Shown here in pieces: positions 13,478-25,081 of a DNA stretch of 64,000 nucleotides. Position 1 is the stretch's first letter. Every line of letters begins with the position of its first letter. The notes below the pieces were generated by a model. The model searched no databases and had not been told where the DNA came from. It saw only the letters and a list, made by a program, of their open reading frames with translations. This DNA is from Parvularia atlantis (taxonomy: Eukaryota): contig CALSCO010001030.1 of NCBI GenBank assembly GCA_943704415.1, forward strand, positions 1 to 64,000. Direction: 5' to 3'. The translations under genes and the position numbers were made by a program.

Positions 13478-15769
13478 ATGGATGCGCAGCCCGCGCCGCT
13501 CGCGCGCGGCGAGCCCATCAACCTGACGATCCGCACGGCCGCCGCGACGATCCGCGCCGAGACGCCGCTGCTGCACGTGCTGCAGCGCGAGGGGCGGACG
13601 GCCGCGGCCGACGGCGGCACCGCTTCGAGCACGCACAGAGTGGCCGATGTGGCACCTTCACCGGCCAACGACGCATCCTGGCGGCGCCCGCCCGAGCCCG
13701 CCCGGCCCCCGGCGCCTCTGCTTTACTCGCCGCACGACGTCGAGCGCCACTCGGCCGCCGCAGAGCTGCAGAGCATCCATCGCGCTTTCACCGGCGCGGC
13801 CGCGGCCGCCGCACCCGATTTCGCCGCCCAGGGCCATCGCCGCTTCGTGCAGCTGCAGTCGCGCGGTCCGGGGCCCGCCAAGCCCGAGCCGAGGCCGGCC
13901 GCCGCGCCGGGCGGGCCGCGCCCGTTCTCGTTCCAGCGGCCGGTGTACTGGGGCGCCATTGTCAGGCCGCCGACGAGCCCGCTGCCGCCCGTGGTCCCAC
14001 CGCCGCTAGGCAACCGCATCGTCACGGACGTGCGGCGTGCAGCGGACGCTGCCGTGCGCCCGCCGGAGCCGAACGGAGCGTCGCACCCGCCCGCTCGCAG
14101 CCTCGACCGAGACCGCGACCGAGACCGCAGCCGCAGCCGCAGCCGCAGCCGCAGCCTCAGCCGGGGACGCGCCGTGCGGTCGTCCAGCCGCAGCAGCAGG
14201 AGCCCGCTTGGGCAGAGGCGGCGGAGCACGAGCCCGGCCGGCGGCAGCAGCCCGGTCCGCGGCCGCGCGCGCGTCACGCTCCGGGGACGCAGCCACAGCC
14301 GCAGCCCGAGCCGCGGGCGCAGCACCAGCCGCAGCAGGAGCAGGAGTACGAGCCACGGCAGAAGCCGCAGCCGCAGCCGAAGCCGAAGCCGAAGCCGCGG
14401 CCGCGGCCGCACGCACCGGCGCAGCACGAGCTCGGGCAGCCTGAGCCGGCGCAGCTGGAGCAGCCGCAGCCGCAGCTCCAGTCGCAGCCGCAGCCGAAGC
14501 CGCGGCCGACGGAACCGCGGCGGCAGCCGCTCGCCCAGTCGGACACGGACCGCGGCCCCGGAAAAGCCGCCCGCGCCCGCGCCCGCCCCCGCCGCGCCCA
14601 TGATCAGCCCCGCGTTCAAGGCGTCGTTTATGCCAATCTCGCCCGAGGCGCTGATGCCGGCCGCCCTAGTTCCATCGGCCCCGCGAGTCGTCGAAGTTAC
14701 GCGCGGCTTGGACGTGCCGCCACAGCCGCCTTTCATTGTCATACCGCGCCGCGTGAGCTCAAGCTCAAGTGTGCTTCCCGGCGCAACGACTTTGCCCGTG
14801 CCGCTGGCGATGCTTCGGCCACCCGTGCCTCTTGCCATGCTGACGCCGCCTGCGTCGGTGCCGCAGCCCGTGCCGGTGCTGCGGCTGGTGGCGCAGCCGG
14901 GACCGGTGGCGCAGCCGGTGCTGGTGCCGCGCAATGTGTTTGACAGCCCGGATCCGATGGACCTCGGCGAGTCGCTCGTGCTGACGCCCGTGCAGGACAC
15001 CGTCGGGCCACCGCCAACTGCACCGCCGCCGGTCGTCGCACCGCCGAGGCGCGCGCCCGTGCCCGCGATCGTGCTGGACGACGACTTACCGGACAGCGAC
15101 GCGGTGCCGATGGACCTGACCGACACGCCGCCGCCCGCGTCGCCCATGGACAGCGCAGCGATGCCAGAACTGGGGCCGAAGCGCTCGGGCATGTTTGCGC
15201 GGCGCGTCGTCGTCACCAACGGCCGGCGCGAGTCTGTCAGCGAAGCTGCCGAGCGCGCCGCTGCCGACAGTGCCGCCGCTGAGCACCTGACTGAAAGCGC
15301 AGCAGCTGCCGAGCGCACCCTTGCGCCGTCACTTGGCCTGGCAATGGCGACCACGGATGAGGCGCCCGAACCCAGCGCTGCGAAGCCAACGCCGGCCGTC
15401 GAGAGCACCACCACCGCGACAGCCAGCACGATCGCTGCCCCAGGCCCCCCAAGGCCACGCCGGAAGCGTGTCGCGCTCACGGCTCAGCGATGCGCCAACG
15501 ACAGTAACTTTTACGTCGACTTGTTCCGCCAGGCGTTGCACCTGCGCGCGCAGCAGGGCGCGCCGCCGCCCGACGCCGCGCACGTCGTGCTGAGCATCGA
15601 CGGGTACGTCTGGTACGAGTACAACCCGGCAGACCTCCACCGGGCGTTGGAAGAGCGCCTGGACGAGCGCCAGCGCCTAATCGTCCTGGCCAAGCGCGAG
15701 CTCGCGCGGCTAAGGAGCGCCTCGCGGACGGCGAGCGCGGAAGCTAGACCGTCTACTAGCCAATCTTAA
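13478..15769 (+). CDS. Intronless Pro-rich protein with a long RS/RD dipeptide domain (763 aa from ATG 13478)
   Basis: Uninterrupted ORF with RDRDRDRSRSRSRS...; the only globular-looking part is the C-terminus (NFYVDLFRQAL...VVLSIDGYVWYEYNPADLHRALEERLDERQRL). The upstream part of track ORF 12443-15769 is antisense to RTF1. Confidence 0.7.
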   Translation: MDAQPAPLARGEPINLTIRTAAATIRAETPLLHVLQREGRTAAADGGTASSTHRVADVAPSPANDASWRRPPEPARPPAPLLYSPHDVERHSAAAELQSIHRAFTGAAAAAAPDFAAQGHRRFVQLQSRGPGPAKPEPRPAAAPGGPRPFSFQRPVYWGAIVRPPTSPLPPVVPPPLGNRIVTDVRRAADAAVRPPEPNGASHPPARSLDRDRDRDRSRSRSRSRSLSRGRAVRSSSRSSRSPLGQRRRSTSPAGGSSPVRGRARVTLRGRSHSRSPSRGRSTSRSRSRSTSHGRSRSRSRSRSRSRGRGRTHRRSTSSGSLSRRSWSSRSRSSSRSRSRSRGRRNRGGSRSPSRTRTAAPEKPPAPAPAPAAPMISPAFKASFMPISPEALMPAALVPSAPRVVEVTRGLDVPPQPPFIVIPRRVSSSSSVLPGATTLPVPLAMLRPPVPLAMLTPPASVPQPVPVLRLVAQPGPVAQPVLVPRNVFDSPDPMDLGESLVLTPVQDTVGPPPTAPPPVVAPPRRAPVPAIVLDDDLPDSDAVPMDLTDTPPPASPMDSAAMPELGPKRSGMFARRVVVTNGRRESVSEAAERAAADSAAAEHLTESAAAAERTLAPSLGLAMATTDEAPEPSAAKPTPAVESTTTATASTIAAPGPPRPRRKRVALTAQRCANDSNFYVDLFRQALHLRAQQGAPPPDAAHVVLSIDGYVWYEYNPADLHRALEERLDERQRLIVLAKRELARLRSASRTASAEARPSTSQS
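14105..14545 (+). repeat. Coding CGCAGC/CGAAGC hexamer repeats (RS domain)
   Basis: Multiple tandem ccgcag runs. Confidence 0.85.
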
Positions 15770-15773
15770 CGTG

Positions 15774-16873
15774 ATGTACACTTTGTCGCTTGCAAAAGTC
15801 GCGCCTGTCATCAACCTCGTTGAGCCGAAGGCGCATGCGCGTCTTTTCGTGCACCTGGGGCTGCAGCGGTGCGGCCGGCAGCGCGTCGGTCCGGGCCTTC
15901 GCCTGGACCGTCGCGGCCGACCACACCGCCCGCCCCGCTGGCGCCGCAGCGTCCTCCGCCCCGGTGCGCCGCGCGGCGCGAACGGCCCGGCGCGCCCTCA
16001 CACGCCCGGCGCAGCGCGTTGAGGACCTCCGCCGAGCCCGCGCCCCTGCGCGCCCCCACCGCCACCGCGCGGCCAAGCGCTCGCGCTGCGCTCCTGCGCC
16101 GTCCCCGCCGGCCGCGGTATTCCGGTGGGGCACGCGCTTGCTCGGCCGGCAACCAGGCTGACACGCGCTGTCGCAGCCCGGCCGACTTCCCGCCGCTGCC
16201 GTCGCGCGCCGCGCCCACCGCCCCGCGCGCCGCCCCCGCCCCGGCCGCCCCGCCCGCACGGCCCGTCGCCGTCGCGCAGCTCGTCAAGGCCGCGCCGCCA
16301 GCCGACGTCGCACAACGCCCCTACAGCCAGGTCGCCGGCGCCGCCGACTCGCACCGCGCGGCCCTGGCCGCCGCCTCGGCCGCCGCTGCCGCTGCCCGCG
16401 CCCCGCTGCCCGCGACACGCCTCGCGCCGCTCACGCGCAAGCTCGTGCGCGTCATCCGCGACGACCTCGCGTGCGTCCCCGCGCCGCCCGTGCGCCCGTC
16501 GCCCGCGACCGTCTCTGCGCCGGCGGCGGCACCGCTGCCCGCCCGCCCGCGCGCACTGCGTTCGCTCCCGCGCGCTGTCACGCTCTTCCGTGCGCGCCAC
16601 CGTCACGTCGCGTGCGTGCGTCGCCTCGCGCCGAGTGCCTTCCTCTCGCGGCGCCTCATTCAGGTGCGCGCAAGGTTGCATTGCTGTGCGCTCAGCACTC
16701 ATCTGCCGCAGCGCATGGTCCGCGCCACGACGTCCACCGCGCTGCTGCGCCAGTACAACTTGCTGCGCCCGTCGTGGGCGCTCGTCGGTGCGGCGCCTCC
16801 GGCTCTGTGAGCGGCCCGACTGACCGCACACGCGCGCACAGACGGCGGCTGGCGCCCGCAGGCCGCTTGCTGA
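15774..16873 (+). CDS. Pro/Ala-rich hypothetical protein, multi-exon; start uncertain
   Basis: Phase-consistent introns near 15963, 16117, 16664 and 16788; ends ...LLRPSWALV/DGGWRPQAAC* (TGA 16871-16873). Confidence 0.45.
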
Positions 16874-16921
16874 GCCTCTCCCTCTCGTGCATCCATTTGC
16901 CTACCCCTGACCTACTCGACC

Positions 16922-19142
16922 ATGCAAGCCCACATCAACCCGTCCCTCGCCGAAGTCACCCGCCGCCTGCTCGACGGCGAGGGCAACATGATCCCCGTCT
17001 TCCGCCAGCTCAACGCCGACCTGCTCACGCCCGTGTCGGTGCGTGCACACAGCCGTCGCTGCCGCTGCGGCAGTGCACTCACCGCCGTCCGTGCCAGGCC
17101 TACCTTAAGATCGCCAAGGGCGCCACGCACTCGTTCCTGCTTGAGTCGATCGCGGGCGGCGAGCGCGTGAGCCGCTACTCGTTCATCGGCGCCAACCCGC
17201 GCAAGATCATCGCCACCGGTCCGAACGAGGCGGTGCAGGGTGCGCCGAGCCACCGTCACGCTGCAAGATGGCGCCGCTCAGACGCGCGTGTGGCGCAGGC
17301 GACCCGCTCGCCGTGCTGGAGCCGCTGCTGCGCGACGTGCGCTACATGCGCGTGCAGGGCCTGCCCGCGTTCACTGGCGGCGCCGTCGGCTACATTTCGT
17401 ACGACTGCGTGCGGCACTTTGAGCCGCGCACGGTACGCCCGCTCAAGGTGCGCAGCGCGCATGTCCCCCCGCGCACCGGTGTGACGCACGCTCGCACGCG
17501 GCGCAGGACGTGCTGCAGATCCCCGAGGCCGTGCTCATGTTCTGCGACACGATCATCGTCTTTGACCACGCGTGGCAGACGATCAAGGTGGGTGCGCACA
17601 GGCTCTGCTGTACTGAAAGGCTTGCTCACGCGCGCCGCGTTCCAGGTCGTCGCGCACGTCTCGCACAACGCCACTGCAGGCACCGACCGCGCTGCCAGCG
17701 AGACCGCCATCGCCGAGGCGTACGCGCAGGCGTCCACAGCGATCGACACGCTGCTGCGCGCACTGCAGGACCCGCACGTGCCGCTGCCACAGCAGGGCAC
17801 CGTAACGTCAAGCCCCGAGGTGGGCGACGACGCGCTGCGACTTGGCTTCACGCTGACTGCGCCGTGCAGCCCGTCTCGAACGTCGGGCAGCAGGGCTACG
17901 AGGACATTGTGCGCAGCCTTAAGCACTTTATCCACGAGGGCGACATTATCCAGGCCGTGCCGTCGCAGCGCCTCGGTGTGCCCTCGCTTGTGCTGCTCAC
18001 GCCGGGCTCATCCGCTCGCGCCGTCAGCACGCCCGACCGAGCTGCACCCGTTCAACCTGTACCGACACCTGCGCTGCGTTAACCCGTCGCCGTACATGTT
18101 CTACGTCGACCTGAAGGACTTCCAGCTGATCGGCGCGTCGCCTGAGGCCATGGTCAAGGTCAGCGCCGACGGCCACTGGCGACGTCGGCGGTCTGACGCG
18201 CCCGGGCCACGCAGGTCACCAACGGCGAGGTCGAGACCCACCCGATCGCGGGCACACGCCGACGCGGCCGCACGCCCGAGGAGGACGTCGCGCTCGAGAA
18301 AGAGCTGCTCGCGGACGAAAAGGTGGCGGCGTGGTGCACCGGCAGCCTCGCTGACGCCGCCACCGTACGCAGGAGCGCGCTGAGCATATCATGCTCGTCG
18401 ACCTCGGCCGCAACGACGTCAACCGCGTCTGCGTGCCGTCTACCGTGCGCGTGGAGGACCTGATGCACGTGCAGCGCTTCTCGCACGTCATGCACATCGT
18501 CAGGTGCGCCTCCGCCCGGCGACACGCGGACGCCGCTCACATCGCGCTGGCGCATGCACGCGCAGTCGCGTGCTCGGCCAACTGCGCGCGGAGTGCACGC
18601 CGTTCGACGCCTTCCGCTCGATCTTCCCGGCCGGGACCGTGTCGGGCGCGCCGAAGGTCAGTCGCGTGCGGCATGCGCCCTCACACAGGAAGCGTTGACC
18701 CGACCGGCCGCAGATCCGCGCGATCGAGCTCATCAGCGAGCACGAGAAGGAGTGCCGCGGGGTCTACGCCGGCGCAGTCGGCTACTTTAGGTGCGCGCAG
18801 CCGCCAGTTCGCGCGATCTGCTCACGCGGTGGGCGCCGGCCCAGCTACTCGGGCGACATCGACACGTGCATCGCCATCCGCACGATCCTGCACAAGAACC
18901 GCACGCTGTACCTGCAGGCCGGTGCGGGCATCGTCTTCGACTCGGACCCGACGGCCGAGTACGAGGAGACGATTGCGAAGCTCAACGCGAACCTGGCTGC
19001 CATTCGCTCGGCAGAGCAGACGTACGCGGCACCGCTCGGTGCGTCGCGCGTGCCTGTGCGTGCGCTGGCACGCTGACGGTGCGCAGAGGGCGAGCAGGAC
19101 GGCTCGTCGGCCAGCAAGCGCCGGAAGCAGTCGCGCAAGTAG
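16922..19142 (+). CDS. trpE: Anthranilate synthase component I (TRP2/TrpE)
   Basis: DLLTPVS/AYLKI...[101 protein letters not shown]; last exon ...SKRRKQSRK* (TAG 19140-19142). Confidence 0.96.
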
Positions 19143-19153
19143 ACACGCCCACC

Positions 19154-20014
19154 ATGGCAGCGGTCCACAACGGCGGCAGCAGCGGCGAGCGCGCCGCCCC
19201 GCGCGTGCTGCTGATCGACAACTACGACAGCTTCACGTGGAACGTCTACCAGTACCTCGAACTGGCGGGGGCGCGTGTGACCGTGCACCGCAACGACAAG
19301 GTGCGCGCGGAGTCGCACCCAACGTCGGCTAGCTCATCGTTGTTGCGACAGATTACCGTGCAAGAGTGCGAGGCGCTCCAGCCGACCCACATCGTCATCT
19401 CGCCAGGGCCCGGCCGCCCAGCCGACGCCGCCGTGTCGAACGACGTGATCCGCACGTTCGCGGGGCACGTGCCCATCCTCGGCGTGTGCCTGGGCGAGCA
19501 GTGCATGTACGAGCTGTACGGCGGCGTGGTGCGTGTGCGCGCGGGGGTTCGACGCCCGCCGACATCAACGCGCAGGTGACCTACGCCGGCGAGATCAGGC
19601 ACGGCAAGACCGCGCCCGTGTCGCACGACGGCCGCGGTGTGTTCAAGAACGTGCCGGACAACATCGAGATCATTCGGTACCACTCGCTCGCCGGTGCGCA
19701 TCGCGTGCAAGCGGTGTCGGCGCTCTCGCTGACGTGCGCTGACCGCAGGGGACCCGGCGACGCTGCCTGCCGTGCTGGAGATCACAGCGCGCACGGCCAA
19801 CGGCATCGTCATGGGCGTGCGGCACCGCGAGCTGATCGTCGAAGGCGAGCGCGCACGAGGGCACACGCCGTGTGCGCAGGCTGACGAGACACGCACAGGC
19901 GTGCAGTTCCACCCCGAGTCGATCAAGAGCGAGGGCGGCCTGACAATGTTTAGGAACTTTTTGAGCTGGTCCGGCGGGCGCTGGAAGGATCTGCCGCCAA
20001 GCGCGTCATTCTGA
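19154..20014 (+). CDS. trpG: Anthranilate synthase component II, glutamine amidotransferase (TrpG)
   Basis: [62 protein letters not shown] in gcccaccATGG context; TGA 20012-20014. Confidence 0.96.
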
Positions 20015-20072
20015 GCGTATGCGCGGGTCCTGCGGTCTGAGCGCTCAAGCTAACCGCGGGCGCAGACGACCG

Positions 20073-21236
20073 ATGGCGCAGCCGACCATTCTCGAGCGCA
20101 TCGTGCAGCAGCGGCGGCTCGACGTGGCCGCTGCCAAAGAGCGCGAGCCGCTCGAGGCGCTACGTGTGCGCGTCACGACGTCGGCTCCGGCGGCAATCGA
20201 CTTTCACGCGCGGGTGCGGCAGCGATTGCGTCGCGATGAGCACCTCGCTCATGCGCAGCCTCTCGCCAGCTTCTGCGCGCCGTGCAGCCGCCAGCGAGCC
20301 ACGTCGCCGTGATTGGCGAGATCAAGCGCGCGTCGCCGTCCAGAGGAGGCACGTCGCGGTGGTGGGCCTCCAGATGCGCAGCCGCGCTCACACACCGCGC
20401 GCCCGCAGACATCGCACCGGGAGCCGATGCGCTGGCCACTGCCCTGACATATGCGCACGCGGGTGCGGCCGCGATCTCGGTCCTCACCGAGCCGACGTGG
20501 TTCAAGGTGCGCTGCGCACGCTGCTGCTGCCGCGCTGCACCGCGACACTCACGGGATGGGCAGGGCCACCTCGAGGACCTGCGGGAGGCGCGCGCGGCTA
20601 TCGAGCGCAAAGTTGGCGCCGACGCGCGCCCGGCGTTCTTGCGGAAGGACTTTATCGTTGACGAGTACCAGGTCGCGTCTTGGGAGCCCCATTTACTCGG
20701 CCCGCTGAGCGTGCGCGCCCAGGTGCTCGAGGCGCGTGTCGCCGGCGCCGACACGGTGCTGCTGATCGTCGCGTGCCTGTCGGACGACGAGCTGCGCGAG
20801 TTGATGCGCACGTCCCGCGCCCTGGGTATGGAGCCGCTGGTGGAGGTAAACAACGCCGACGAGGTGTGTGCATGCGACCTGTGCGGCATAAGCATGCTGA
20901 CGGCCGGACGCAGATGCGGCGCGCGCTGGCGCTGGGCTCGCGCGTGATCGGCGTCAACAACCGCAACTTGCACAGCTTCACGGTTGACATGAACACGACG
21001 TCGTCGCTGGTGCGGTGTCCTGCGGTGCGCCGCGCTCGCGCTGACGCCTGCCCGGCCAGGCCGAAATGATCTCGCGGGACGGCGACGTGGTGCTCGCGGC
21101 GCTGTCGGGCATCACCGGCCGCGCCGACGTGGCCGCGTACGAGGCGCAGGGCGTGCGCGCGGTGCTCGTGGGCGAGGCGCTCATGCTGGCGGCCGACAAG
21201 GCCGCGTTCATCCGCGGTCTGCTCACGGCAACATGA
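20073..21236 (+). CDS. trpC: Indole-3-glycerol-phosphate synthase (TrpC)
   Basis: [94 protein letters not shown] 21234-21236. Confidence 0.95.
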
Positions 21237-22235
21237 CGTTGGTCAAGATCTGCGGCGTGCGCGGCGAGGACGGTGCACGCCCGCCTGCGCCGCGTGCTGC
21301 CCTGCTGGTCGCTGAACATCTGCGCAGCGGCTGTCACTGCAGCCGACGCCGGCTGTGACCTCATCGGCCTGATCTTCGCCGTCTCCAAGCGGCAGGTGGC
21401 CCTCGCGACGGCGCAGGGCATCGCTGCGCGCGTGCGGTCGCCGAACGAGCGTGGCACGGCGCAGCTCGACGACACATCGTACACCGCAGCGGCGCGCTCG
21501 CTGACCGCCGAGCGGATGCGGCTGGGGCGGCCGCTGCTGGTCGGCATCTTTGCGGACCAGCCCGCGGAGCATATCAACGAAATTGCGGGTGCGCCAGCCG
21601 CGCGCGCCGTCGTGTGTGTGCGTGCGGATGCTGACCGGGCGCCCCGCGCAGAGGCCGTGCCGCTCGACCTGGTGCAGCTGCACGGGCTGCACGAGCCCGT
21701 GGACATGCCGGCAAAGGTGCTCGCGAGGTCTGGTGGGCACGGGCGCTGACGGTGCGCGCGTGCAGATCGTGCGGCCGTGCCTGCGCGCGCTGCACGTGCT
21801 CCCGGACGACACGGCGGCGACGGTGCGAGAGCGGTGCGTTGGCTGGAGCAGGAGGAGGTTGTGCTCGCGCTCATCGGTCACACAGGCTGCGCGCGCACGA
21901 GGGCCACGCCGCGCTAAGCCTGCTGGACACGGGTGTCAAGGGCTCTGCGGTACAGGGCGGGAGCGGCAAGGGTGCGCGCGTGCGATGCCGCTCACTGCTG
22001 CCACCGATCTTTGCCGCGCGCAGAGTTTGACTGGTCAATCGCCGCCGAGCTCGCGCGCGAGGGCTTCCCGTTCCTGCTCGCGGGCGGGCTGACGCCGACG
22101 ACGGTCGCGAGCGCTGTGGTGCAGGTGCGGCCGCTGGGCGTGGACGTGTCGAGCGGGGTCGAGGACGCGGCGACGGGACAGAAGGACCTTGGCAAGATTT
22201 GCGCGTTTGTAGCCGCCGCTGCTGTGTCTCGGTGA
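21233..22235 (+). CDS. trpF: Phosphoribosylanthranilate isomerase (TrpF)
   Basis: [40 protein letters not shown]...[26 protein letters not shown]...[10 protein letters not shown]. Its ATG overlaps the trpC stop (ATGA). Confidence 0.94.
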
Positions 22236-22250
22236 TCGATCGCGCACCAC

Positions 22251-23321
22251 ATGCTCGTGCACAGCGCGCGCCTGGTGGTGCCCGAGGGCGCGGCGAGCGC
22301 CGTGCGCCTGGCGGTGCGCGTGGGCGTGCCGAGCGTTCCCGGGCCGCGAGCCGCGACAGCGCTGATCATCGCGCATCCGTGGGGGCGCGTGCCGGCTGCG
22401 CGCTCTGCCTCGTCTCGGCTTCTGACGCGCGATGCGCGCCCCGACAGCCCGCTCGGCGGCAACGCCGACAACAACGTCGTCCAGGCCGTGTTTGGGCACT
22501 TTGGGCAGCTTGGGTACACGGTCGCGTGCTTCGACATGCGGTGCGGCGTGGCGCGTGTGGCGATGCGCGATGATGGCGCGGGCTGATCGACGGCGTGCAG
22601 GGGCGCAGGCGCGTCGACCGGCTCGACGTCGTGGACCGGTGCGGCGGCGCACGCGAGCTGCGTGCCGACGGGTGGCATCGCTCACGCGGACGCGGCGCGC
22701 GCGCAGGCGCAAGCGAGGCCGAGGACGTGCGCGCCATTGTGCGGTACGTGCTGAGCGCGCAGGCCGGCACGGCCACGCCGGTCGAGCGCATCGTGCTCTG
22801 CGTGCGTGCGCCACACGCGCGCGCGGCACTGCACCGCTGAGCGTGCCCGGACGCGCGCACCAGGGCTACTCGTACGGCGCCGCCGTCTCGGGCATGGTCG
22901 TCGACGAGTTCCCGCAGATCGTCGGCTACGTCGCGATCGCGTACCCGTTCAGCGTGCTGTGGTCGGTGCCGCGCACCCCGCGGACGGTCCGCCGCTCACG
23001 CGACGCACCGCGCAGGTTCCTCACCTCGCTCACGCACGGCGCGGTCCTGGCGAGGGCGCGCACAGCCAAGCCCAAGCTGTTTGTCCAGGTGTTGCTGATG
23101 CGCGCTTGCTGGCCGCAGCAGCGACTGAGCCCAGAACGGCGGCCGCGCAGGGCGACTGCGACAACTTCACGGGCCGGTCGAGCTACACGTACTACCTCAA
23201 CTCGTTTGCGCAGCCGCTGCAGGTCGAGTGGATCGACGGCGCCGACCACTTCTTCTGGAGCCGCGAGAAGCAGGTGGTGCGCGCGATCGAGCAGTGGCTG
23301 CAGACGGCGTGTCGCCTGTAA
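22251..23321 (+). CDS. Alpha/beta-fold hydrolase
   Basis: AHPW/.PLGG, FDMR/GAGASTG, nucleophile GYSYG, GDCDNFT (Asp), GADHFF (His). Confidence 0.88.
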
Positions 23322-23335
23322 AACAAAGCTGACCC

Positions 23336-25081
23336 TCATGCGGACCCTGCTGCCGGCTGGCACACGAGCTTGTGCCGCGGCCAGTCGTCCTGCTGGCATG
23401 TGCGGCAGCAGTAGGCCGCGCGCTTGCAGCGGCCGCAGTGCGACAGCGGCACGTACTCCTGCGCGCACGCCTGAGCACGCGTGCATGCAGACGCCGCCTC
23501 TGTGCACCGTCCGGCGCGCGTCTGCCATCATCGTGCGCTCGAGCTGCTCGGCCAGGCGTGCGTAGCGCTGCACAACCGCGTCCCGCGCCGGCTTTGTGTC
23601 GGCTGGCGCGACACGAGGCTCAAGACGCTGACCACTGAGTGCCGTGCAACCACGAGCGTACCGCCGTCCGCGATGCCCTCGAGCTCGCGCGCCATCGCCG
23701 GCTCGAGCTCCTGCGTCCAGCGCTGCTTGACTTGCGCGACGATCTGGTGCCGTGCCCATTCAGCGGGCGTGACAGGACGCGAGCACGCAGCACGACCTCT
23801 TTCTTGCGCATGTGGTCCCGCGACGACAGGTGCCGCCCAAACGTCGCGAGCAGTTCGGGCGCGTCAGGCGGCCCGCTCGAGCGCGCGCACTCGGGCCGCT
23901 CGCACAGGACCTCAGGCCGCTCATCCGGCCGAAAGGTCAGCGCCGCCGCTGGGCAGGACGGCGCGCAGTGCTCACCTCTGTGCTGGCGTTGTGGTCGTGG
24001 ATGGGCCACGGGACGCACACCTTGCGTGACAGACCCGGCACGGTTGCGATGAACGGCGCGAGCACGTCACCGTGCCAGAACGGCACCTGCGCGCGCGCAC
24101 GCGTGGGACGCACGCGCACGCCAGCGCCCCGGCTCGCACCAGCACAAAATCTTGGTCGACGAGCGAGTAGAGCGCCGCGACGGGGCAGTCGAGCTCGCCG
24201 CGCAGCCGGAAAACCGTGTGGGTGAACGAGCGCAGCAATGCGGCGTCGTGCCCGGCCGCCTCCCACACGCGCCTGAGTGCGAGCGTCTCGTCACGGATGG
24301 CCGAGGGCAGCGGCGCGTTCGGGTCCCGGCGGTCGTCGTCGTCGTCGTCAGACGGTTCGTCATCCGACGCGTCGTCCTGCGAGCGCGGTGCGCGGCCGCT
24401 GGCGCGCTGGGCCTCGTCCTGCCGGTGTGGCGATCAGCCTCGGGTAGAGTGCCCACGCGCACGTGCCTGTCGCCTTTGCGACTCGACGAAGGCGCGCAGA
24501 CAGTTAAGGCGCACGGCCGCGGCGACGACGAGGGCCGACGCGCTGCGCTCGTACCTGCGCTTGGGTTCAAAGGCGCATTGATGCGCGTGACAGTGGCCCC
24601 CGCACCGCGCGTTAACCAGCGCGAGCGGCACGGCGAGCTGGCGCAGGATGTGCGTGGACATTTTGAACAGGTTCTCGGTCGTGTCGAGGCGCGGCACGGC
24701 GCGGAAGACGACCGCGGGCCAGTGGAAGCGCGCGGTCCGGCCCGTGTCGAGCGCGAGCATCTGCCACGACGTCGGCCGGCCCTCACTGTCTGCGTGCGCG
24801 CACGTCAGACGGCCGTGGTGGCGCGCGATCGGTCCCGACGTGCCTGCCGGCAGGAAGAGCGTCTGCGGGCGCCGCCGCGTCTGCTCGCGCGCCCACTCGG
24901 CGATCTGCCGGCGCTCGTCCACCTCGAGCTTGTAGAAGATTTCCTCAACCTGCCGCAACGCAGCGATCACCGGCGTCAGATGGTGTCAGCAGGCCGCCGT
25001 CGACGGCGCACGCGCCTGGGTCGCGCTAAGGCGGCACTGCGCAATGTCGCGCGGCAGAGTCTTGGGCTCGTCCGCGGGCAT
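23336..25081 (-). CDS. Hypothetical protein with a C-terminal MYND-type zinc finger
   Basis: Last exon LSHCGRCKRAAYCCRTCQQDDWPRHKLVC...*; upstream exons are unassigned. Confidence 0.65.

Follow-up and report, generated by a model that had tools for sequence, protein, structure and literature searches.

Four genes of tryptophan biosynthesis, trpE, trpG, trpC and trpF, were found side by side on the forward (+) strand of a 64,000-nucleotide (nt) stretch of the genome of the nucleariid Parvularia atlantis (assembly GCA_943704415.1, contig CALSCO010001030.1, positions 1 to 64,000; the whole stretch is called the window below). They occupy positions 16922 to 22235 and follow the order of a bacterial operon. 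We tentatively favour a reading in which this is an inherited cluster that would be expressed as two overlapping, spliced, bicistronic messenger RNAs (mRNAs), E-G and C-F, with the second open reading frame (ORF) of each being reached by termination-reinitiation. It seems reasonably probable that some tryptophan enzyme is made from a shared mRNA.

Gene models of the trp cluster

Splice-signal models gave four intact ORFs with 27 coding introns in total and no internal stop codon. The introns are of the GT/GC-AG kind, 47-63 nt long, with a CTRAC/CTCAC-type branch site. trpE (16922..19142) encodes anthranilate synthase component I of 518 amino acids (aa), contains 12 introns and ends in TAG; it was assigned by Pfam PF04715/PF00425 and passed the cut-off of TIGR00564 (564 versus 517.7). 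An 11-nt spacer (19143..19153) separates it from trpG (19154..20014), which is out of frame with trpE and encodes a glutamine amidotransferase of 217 aa with 4 introns, one of them GC-AG, and a TGA stop (Pfam PF00117; TIGR00566 above cut-off). The following 58-nt spacer contains a 49-nt GT-AG intron (20017..20065), and after splicing the trpC start lies 9 nt from the trpG stop and in frame. trpC (20073..21236; indole-3-glycerol phosphate synthase, 279 aa, 6 introns including one GC-AG, TGA stop, Pfam PF00218) is overlapped at its stop by the start of trpF in an ATGA (21233..21236), a spacing of -4 nt. trpF itself (21233..22235) encodes a phosphoribosylanthranilate isomerase of 243 aa with 5 introns and a TGA stop (Pfam PF00697). 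The expected Pfam families were recovered for 16 of the 21 trp exons scanned. Motifs of catalytic type were spotted by eye, namely CLGEQ and FHPE, with KICG and LLDT in TrpF; their roles are presumed.

The EukProt database holds separate proteins for TrpE, TrpG and TrpF, all labelled Parvularia atlantis. The TrpE model is identical over its full length to P0126 (518 aa, Unigene6101) and the TrpG model likewise to P0001 (217 aa, Unigene6101). TrpF was compared with P0246 (Unigene6100) over the query exon and by length; the match is 100% over that exon and both are 243 aa long. Adjacent ORFs on one strand, with separate starts and stops and assigned by Pfam and NCBIfam to a single pathway, are what is expected of an operon. 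An open G-C-F frame is broken by stops at 20012-20014 and 21234-21236 and by a change of frame at C/F. The first-pass annotation, made from the DNA letters, had described four separate intron-rich trp ORFs with their own starts and stops on one strand. The splice-signal models, Pfam and EukProt bear this out.

Two features of the models lie apart from the question of operon structure. Three GC-AG introns occur within 2.6 kb, at 19845, 20349 and 22385. TrpE ends in a basic tail, KRRKQSRK, for which there is a separate final exon (19087-19142), and the nearest relative, P0142, ends in PPRKRARN. Both tails resemble what we take to be nuclear localisation signals, which is odd for this enzyme.

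The cluster in assemblies and in a spliced contig

The stretch was partly present in three of five sequencing runs. X1 gave one 27-kb contig with 0 differences over 15000-24000, and may be the source of the window. X2 gave, as record 10, a fully spliced contig of 4,303 nt on the + strand spanning 16597..22707 (ends computed from the record coordinates), from the interior of the upstream ORF, where GC climbs to 80-89%, to the interior of the downstream gene. This contig covered exons only, with all 28 introns removed, that is the 27 coding introns and the one in the G/C spacer, and its coordinates fitted the spliced model in every one of 11 intervals. The E/G, C/F and F/next-gene junctions lie inside gap-free pieces with 0 differences (E/G in 19086-19298, C/F in 21059-21271). 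Across G/C the span is 1,183 nt, the length expected with the spacer intron spliced; retention would give 1,232. X3 (share 0.08) gave just 151-nt unspliced pieces and genes of other organisms and has no bearing either way. In a second assembly, that of EukProt, E and G are on Unigene6101 and F is on Unigene6100.

The E/G and C/F stops are therefore real; splicing removes none of the junctions but shortens G/C to 9 nt. The spacers of 11, 58 (49 of them intron) and -4 nt given by the first-pass annotation were confirmed in their coordinates, and the same annotation had named mistaken junction stops as a way in which it could be wrong. Error in assembly or annotation was rejected, since X1 and X2 agree letter for letter with the window at E/G and C/F, with the stops retained, and the G/C span is exact to the base. 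Contigs can, however, join overlapping RNAs, so that one molecule with several ORFs is not established by the X2 contig.

Origin of the cluster

Single-protein trees placed the window TrpE and TrpC with the fungal proteins (98 and 99) and TrpG with the fungal proteins plus amoebozoans (94). The TrpF trees gave the same fungal grouping weakly, at 88 and 83, and TrpF by itself does not separate a fungal from a bacterial grouping. Rows omitted were L003 from the G tree, F rows outside 180-300 aa, and six long rows and most of the distant bacteria from the later analysis, which comprised an F tree and the approximately unbiased (AU) test below. In a concatenate of the four genes (33 rows; a quick tree), the window joined 8 fungal-type rows (100) and fell outside chytrids plus Blastocladiella (94), and this clade was sister to 7 rows of Tepidiformales-type Chloroflexota (100). 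'Tepidiformales-type' is our own name for the loci L081-L115 and L118, which carry differing record titles. A single clade of the window with those 7 rows was rejected on a quick tree (p-AU 3.6e-7, LG+G4). Recent horizontal transfer of a bacterial operon is ruled out by this value and the grouping with fungi, and the earlier claim that the proteins are fungal-type and not recently bacterial holds. Among the bacteria sampled, a set biased because it was found by searches seeded with the window proteins, the Tepidiformales-type Chloroflexota are placed as the sister group by these alignments. A 2026 preprint on eukaryotic tryptophan enzymes finds a Chloroflexota sister for eukaryotic trpE, trpD and trpAB and a mixed signal for trpF and TRP1, and considers a single operon transfer possible but in need of validation (10.64898/2026.05.08.723234).

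Gene order was compared in relatives. trpE and the G-C-F gene had consecutive accession numbers in all three chytrids or early fungi checked (Hyaloraphidium, Polychytrium and Gonapodya), and E-G-C-F is joined in seven database models: two from Synchytrium, one each from Borealophlyctis, Thoreauomyces, Blastocladiella and Allomyces, and one metagenome protein. The Borealophlyctis model, in which the start of G is absent, is probably a merge of neighbours, though it still shows their adjacency. Elsewhere E-G is fused in Arcella and Cavostelium; C-F is fused, with the C start free, in Pigoraptor, Creolimax and Balamuthia; and one D-C fusion protein was found. Fusion of G to C was seen in fungal rows only. 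Judged on these sequences the E-G-C-F order is old. Given that trpE stands beside G-C-F in chytrids and early fungi, it was not recruited in this lineage, and given that G-C is fused in fungi only, the G/C gap is likely to be ancestral. The locus probably represents a stage that preceded fusion of G to C in fungi. C-F fusions occur in three lineages (Holozoa, Amoebozoa and fungi), and to assume three separate fusions would be less parsimonious than a single fission here; the C/F split in Parvularia is thus probably a fission. The first-pass annotation had offered two histories, and each stands in part. In-place fission of G-C-F with recruitment of trpE agrees with C/F, fused in Pigoraptor, Creolimax, Balamuthia and fungi, but not with trpE beside G-C-F in early fungi. 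A pre-fusion state fits G/C, whereas C/F fits fission instead.

It is somewhat doubtful that the ATGA overlap is an untouched bacterial relic, a view that was rated lower after the Holozoa and Amoebozoa C-F fusions had surfaced. For it, the TrpC start is placed four residues ahead of TIL, which also holds for 24 of 29 motif-bearing bacterial loci (3 more lack the motif), TrpF starts MTLVKICG, and the junctions have no linker. None of 33 fused proteins has Met at the C start position and none of 33 at the F start position. Against it, the overlap was present in 41 of 72 loci selected on the TrpF start but in only 5 of 22 unselected ones, and since Met-Thr codons always read ATGA the overlap arises automatically. 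The history that we favour would run as follows. An early amorphean ancestor would have gained the operon, and E-G would have stayed beside C-F once trpD had left. C-F would have fused early and been resplit here, for which a frameshift and a Met ahead of the conserved TLVKICG would suffice, so little being needed because Met-Thr codons yield ATGA by themselves. E/G may have been split likewise.

Three stand-alone TrpG proteins (P0002, P0004 and P0011) group with the window TrpG (90), and one further TrpE groups with the window TrpE (90). The TrpG relatives P0002, P0004, P0011 and P0124 were called as ORFs without interruption, and their contigs of 2.7-18 kb could be multi-ORF transcripts of related protists. 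A scan of 2 of 64 metagenome parts did not recover the contigs of the first three. P0068, a metagenome protein modelled as E-G-C-F (1,366 aa), has very short linkers at G-C and C-F and sits on a long branch; it may represent a deep fungal lineage near the fusion event.

Expression of the cluster

On a long RNA the downstream ORFs would be preceded by many AUG codons, 10 before trpG, 14 before trpC and 23 before trpF. trpE contains 8 internal AUGs and trpC contains 8 besides the trpF start. There is no reduction in AUG use: 3,783 nt contain 19 in frame and 3 out of frame, against 7.0 and 1.6 per kb in other genes. These numbers argue against leaky scanning. The stop-start distances of 11, 9 (spliced) and -4 nt all fall within the range of about 20 nt described for viral reinitiation (PMC10275272).

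The composition of the junctions differs. The end of trpG carries an AT-rich, rare-codon patch in its last exon (19901..20000; AT 0.45 against a background of 0.30), which was noticed first and tested afterwards and is a candidate internal promoter for a trpC-trpF transcript. The last 30 codons are rare in trpG and trpF (4.6th and 3.9th percentile of 929 windows) and ordinary in trpE and trpC (66th and 62nd). Two of 21 other models had gene ends below the 5th percentile, and each of these has a convergent neighbour at a distance of 35 nt. Of 19 reference starts, 12 have TCGA within 60 nt, against a background of 28%, and so do trpE and the downstream gene, but the 60 nt before trpG, trpC and trpF are background-like, with AT 0.30 and no TCGA. 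Taken together, the composition hints at an internal promoter before trpC and gives no such hint before trpG or trpF. AG acceptors are present 12 nt before the trpG AUG, where the AG belongs to the stop codon itself, and 8 nt before the trpC AUG; no [CT]AG was found in the 60 nt ahead of trpF. Introns placed directly ahead of a start codon are typical of 5' leaders.

A break at G/C is favoured because E and G share a unigene that F does not, because trpG and trpF end in rare codons, and because an intron lies just before the trpC start. trpC would have its own promoter in the last trpG exon, with the spacer intron in its leader, while TrpG and TrpF would be made by termination-reinitiation at the 11-nt gap and the AUGA overlap. 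Read-through would add longer RNAs. The two pairs proposed, E-G and C-F, are also those found fused in Arcella and Cavostelium and in Pigoraptor, Creolimax and Balamuthia, respectively.

Several observations weigh against this reading. A short-read contig is not a molecule, and the X2 contig also bridges both non-pathway neighbours; X2 is only guessed to be RNA, though it is fully spliced, and X2 and EukProt may share source reads. The TrpC unigene was not found among the EukProt matches, so the break between Unigene6101 and Unigene6100 can be placed only between G and F. The promoter tests are post hoc and small. Their 19 starts come from our own models, 13 models were dropped as fragmentary or weak, divergent pairs share spacers, and the comparison is partly one of coding with non-coding DNA. 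In the 80 nt before any start neither UGGGA, which we take to be a reinitiation motif of the TURBS (termination upstream ribosome binding site) type, nor a stable fold was found (z -0.59 to 0.72; pseudoknots lie outside this test). With divergent gaps of 38-60 nt, leaders must be very short, and at each of the junctions transcription could plausibly begin within the coding exon upstream. Many exon junctions lie downstream of the trpE and trpC stops, and exon junctions after a stop would invite nonsense-mediated decay. Finally, reinitiation after long ORFs is documented best in viruses (PMC10275272).

The lack of room for a promoter or untranslated regions, to which the first-pass annotation had appealed, was also examined. 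A gene finder gave 37 models in the window and reproduced the trp models except for one retained trpC intron. Among 24 gaps between models scoring at least 30 (some tandem gaps fall within split models), divergent gaps were 38-244 nt (6 pairs), convergent gaps 35-78 nt (7 pairs) and tandem gaps -4 to 216 nt. The three shortest are C/F (-4 nt), E/G (11 nt) and F/next gene (15 nt), and tight packing extends to the non-pathway neighbours, with 48 nt before trpE and 15 nt after trpF. The genome as a whole is described as compact: it has a size of 19.24 Mb, and its short introns number 8.58 per gene (PMC9492541). The shortness of the gaps in the cluster is therefore confirmed, but with the whole window compact it is not diagnostic by itself. 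Of the further claim of a spliced polycistronic operon, the spliced RNA cover over all junctions is supported, but the same contig would also suit two overlapping bicistronic or four overlapping monocistronic mRNAs.

The alternative to be taken most seriously, though we regard it as doubtful, is a set of four overlapping monocistronic mRNAs of the kind seen in compact microsporidian genomes, each starting inside an upstream coding exon, with poor 3' end formation yielding multi-gene RNAs of which the first ORF alone would be translated. This needs no unusual translation. It agrees with the very short gaps throughout the window, with the bridging of unrelated neighbours by the contig, and with the coexistence of mono- and polycistronic forms in Encephalitozoon (PMC2803860) and mushroom fungi (PMC4503453). 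However, no AT-rich or rare-codon signal precedes trpG or trpF, and an AUG-free trpF leader must begin at most 50 nt from its AUG, in ordinary trpC codons. It also leaves unexplained why the three shortest gaps and an exact stop-start overlap are found in this cluster.

A single four-cistron mRNA with its promoter upstream of trpE and three successive rounds of termination-reinitiation is unlikely. The one unbroken spliced contig, in which loss of the spacer intron leaves 9 nt at G/C, and the lack of TCGA or AT-rich signals in the 60 nt upstream of trpG, trpC or trpF agree with it. The location of F on a different unigene from E and G and the rare-codon patch ending trpG do not, and at the 3-20% per junction given for viral reinitiation (PMC10275272) very little TrpF would remain after three rounds. 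We consider quite unlikely the fullest version, a true eukaryotic operon. Here one capped 28-intron mRNA would be read by 80S reinitiation, derived from Chloroflexota by way of an early eukaryote, and G/C, possibly together with the ATGA and both bacterial starts, would never have been fused, the locus preserving the state that preceded the fungal, holozoan and amoebozoan fusions.

It is very improbable that recoding rebuilds a G-C-F polypeptide, with the UGA read through at G/C and a frameshift of -1 at C/F. The trpC frame continues that of trpG over the 9-nt spliced spacer, and a G-C-F fusion is functional in fungi. Yet the UGA is followed by G, and no slippery heptamer precedes the ATGA, these being judged against favourable contexts in the way that such contexts are presumed to work. 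Moreover each ORF has its own Met where the bacterial orthologues start, and E/G is out of frame. A more general use of TGA as a sense codon was also tried as an explanation of the three TGA stops with an in-frame next ATG, and was rejected as weak, C/F being out of frame. Cutting of a nematode-style pre-mRNA into single mRNAs by spliced-leader trans-splicing is scarcely credible: the acceptors before trpG and trpC would suit it, but trpF has none, the contig continues through all junctions, and a literature search turned up no report of spliced leaders in nucleariids. A single fused gene with mistaken stops, to which some fungal database models joining all four domains lend some colour, can practically be dismissed in view of the X1 and X2 agreement and the separate EukProt ORFs.

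Neighbouring genes

The upstream neighbour (15835..16873, +) is an open, low-complexity model of 278 aa, unrelated to tryptophan synthesis, with a GC of 80-89% in its middle. Its stop lies 48 nt before trpE, its intron at 16664-16711 is visible as a joint in X2, and its longest exon had no Pfam match. The ORF contains a DFPPLP motif and reaches 89% GC. If the trp RNA begins near 16600, the last 34 codons of this ORF, with two Trp codons, would form an upstream ORF; a Trp-sensing leader is conceivable but unsupported. The downstream neighbour (22251..23321, +), 15 nt after trpF, is a 233-aa model that by eye has the look of an alpha/beta hydrolase, and 3 of its exons had no Pfam match. Upstream of it TCGA is present and AT is 0.38, and the trpF end is rich in rare codons; it is probably a transcription unit of its own. 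Neither neighbour matched the proteins fetched for comparison.

Some patterns recur in the window. Four of the six divergent pairs have 38-79 nt between predicted start codons, and their spacers are rich in TCGA/TTCG and AT-richer, making these a candidate minimal bidirectional promoter element. A second tight tandem pair lies at 2411-2437 (21 nt), with unrelated models and an AT-rich end to the first gene. A TGA stop followed by an in-frame ATG without an intervening stop occurs three times, at 16873/16922 (48 nt), 20014/20073 (9 nt spliced) and 22235/22251 (15 nt).

Discussion

The locus resembles several known systems without being a plain member of any, being operon-like in order and spacing and like viral reinitiation in its stop-start geometry, as far as its letters can tell. 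A Tepidiformales-type operon such as L086 contains trpS, trpE, two other genes, trpG, trpD, trpC, trpF and trpB, and shares with the window the order E, G, C, F as well as the TrpF start and the position of the TrpC Met. ATGA occurs at C/F in 16 of 32 such loci, which were selected on the TrpF start, a choice that builds in ATGA. Unlike these operons, the window cluster is nuclear with 27 coding introns, has neither trpD nor trpB and nothing inserted between E and G, and must be translated by eukaryotic ribosomes.

The fungal TrpG-TrpC-TrpF protein and the chytrid E/G-C-F locus have orthologous domains in the same order. The trifunctional protein is encoded by trpC in A. nidulans and trp-1 in N. 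crassa. In contrast to it, the window has stops and separate starts at all three junctions and no linker. Polycistronic nuclear mRNAs of green algae likewise come from spliced loci with close ORFs on a shared RNA, but those have small ORFs, few upstream AUGs and leaky scanning (PMC7896298, PMC11892635), whereas ORFs of 217-518 aa from one pathway, preceded by 10-23 AUGs, are found here. Termination-reinitiation in caliciviruses, influenza B and fungal viruses uses an AUGA overlap or distances below 20 nt after long ORFs (PMC10275272), as would the window; its genes, however, are cellular and spliced, and they lack a detected UGGGA or stable upstream structure. Read-through transcripts of microsporidia and Agaricomycetes also come from compact genomes with RNA over neighbouring genes, but those genes are transcribed singly as well (PMC2803860, PMC4503453), and the order in the window is that of an ancient pathway.

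A search covering few subscription papers and no supplements found no report of this locus, of polycistronic RNA in nucleariids, or of the chytrid trpE/G-C-F adjacency. The accessible main text of the genome paper (PMC9492541) does not contain the words 'operon', 'polycistron' or 'tryptophan', and the locus is not treated in the accessible part of PMC2871058 or in the Nuclearia genome preprint (0 term matches). The feature is real. As a variation on multi-gene transcription in eukaryotes, its value for evolutionary questions is solid; the claim of an operon mRNA is plausible but unproven.

Gene order provides independent evidence for the question of a single operon transfer. E, G, C and F are adjacent in a nucleariid and in chytrids, the fusions in other lineages join only genes that neighbour each other in the operon (E-G, D-C, C-F and G-C-F), and the four-gene concatenate has one sister group; with these facts that question becomes directly testable. 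Should the genes prove to be expressed from four single mRNAs, the translation claim would fall but the evolutionary result would be unaffected. Production of TrpG or TrpF from a shared mRNA would be cellular reinitiation after long, intron-rich ORFs under conditions where leaky scanning is impossible, and Parvularia atlantis would offer, in a cultured, non-pathogenic amoeba, a rare same-pathway operon in a eukaryote.

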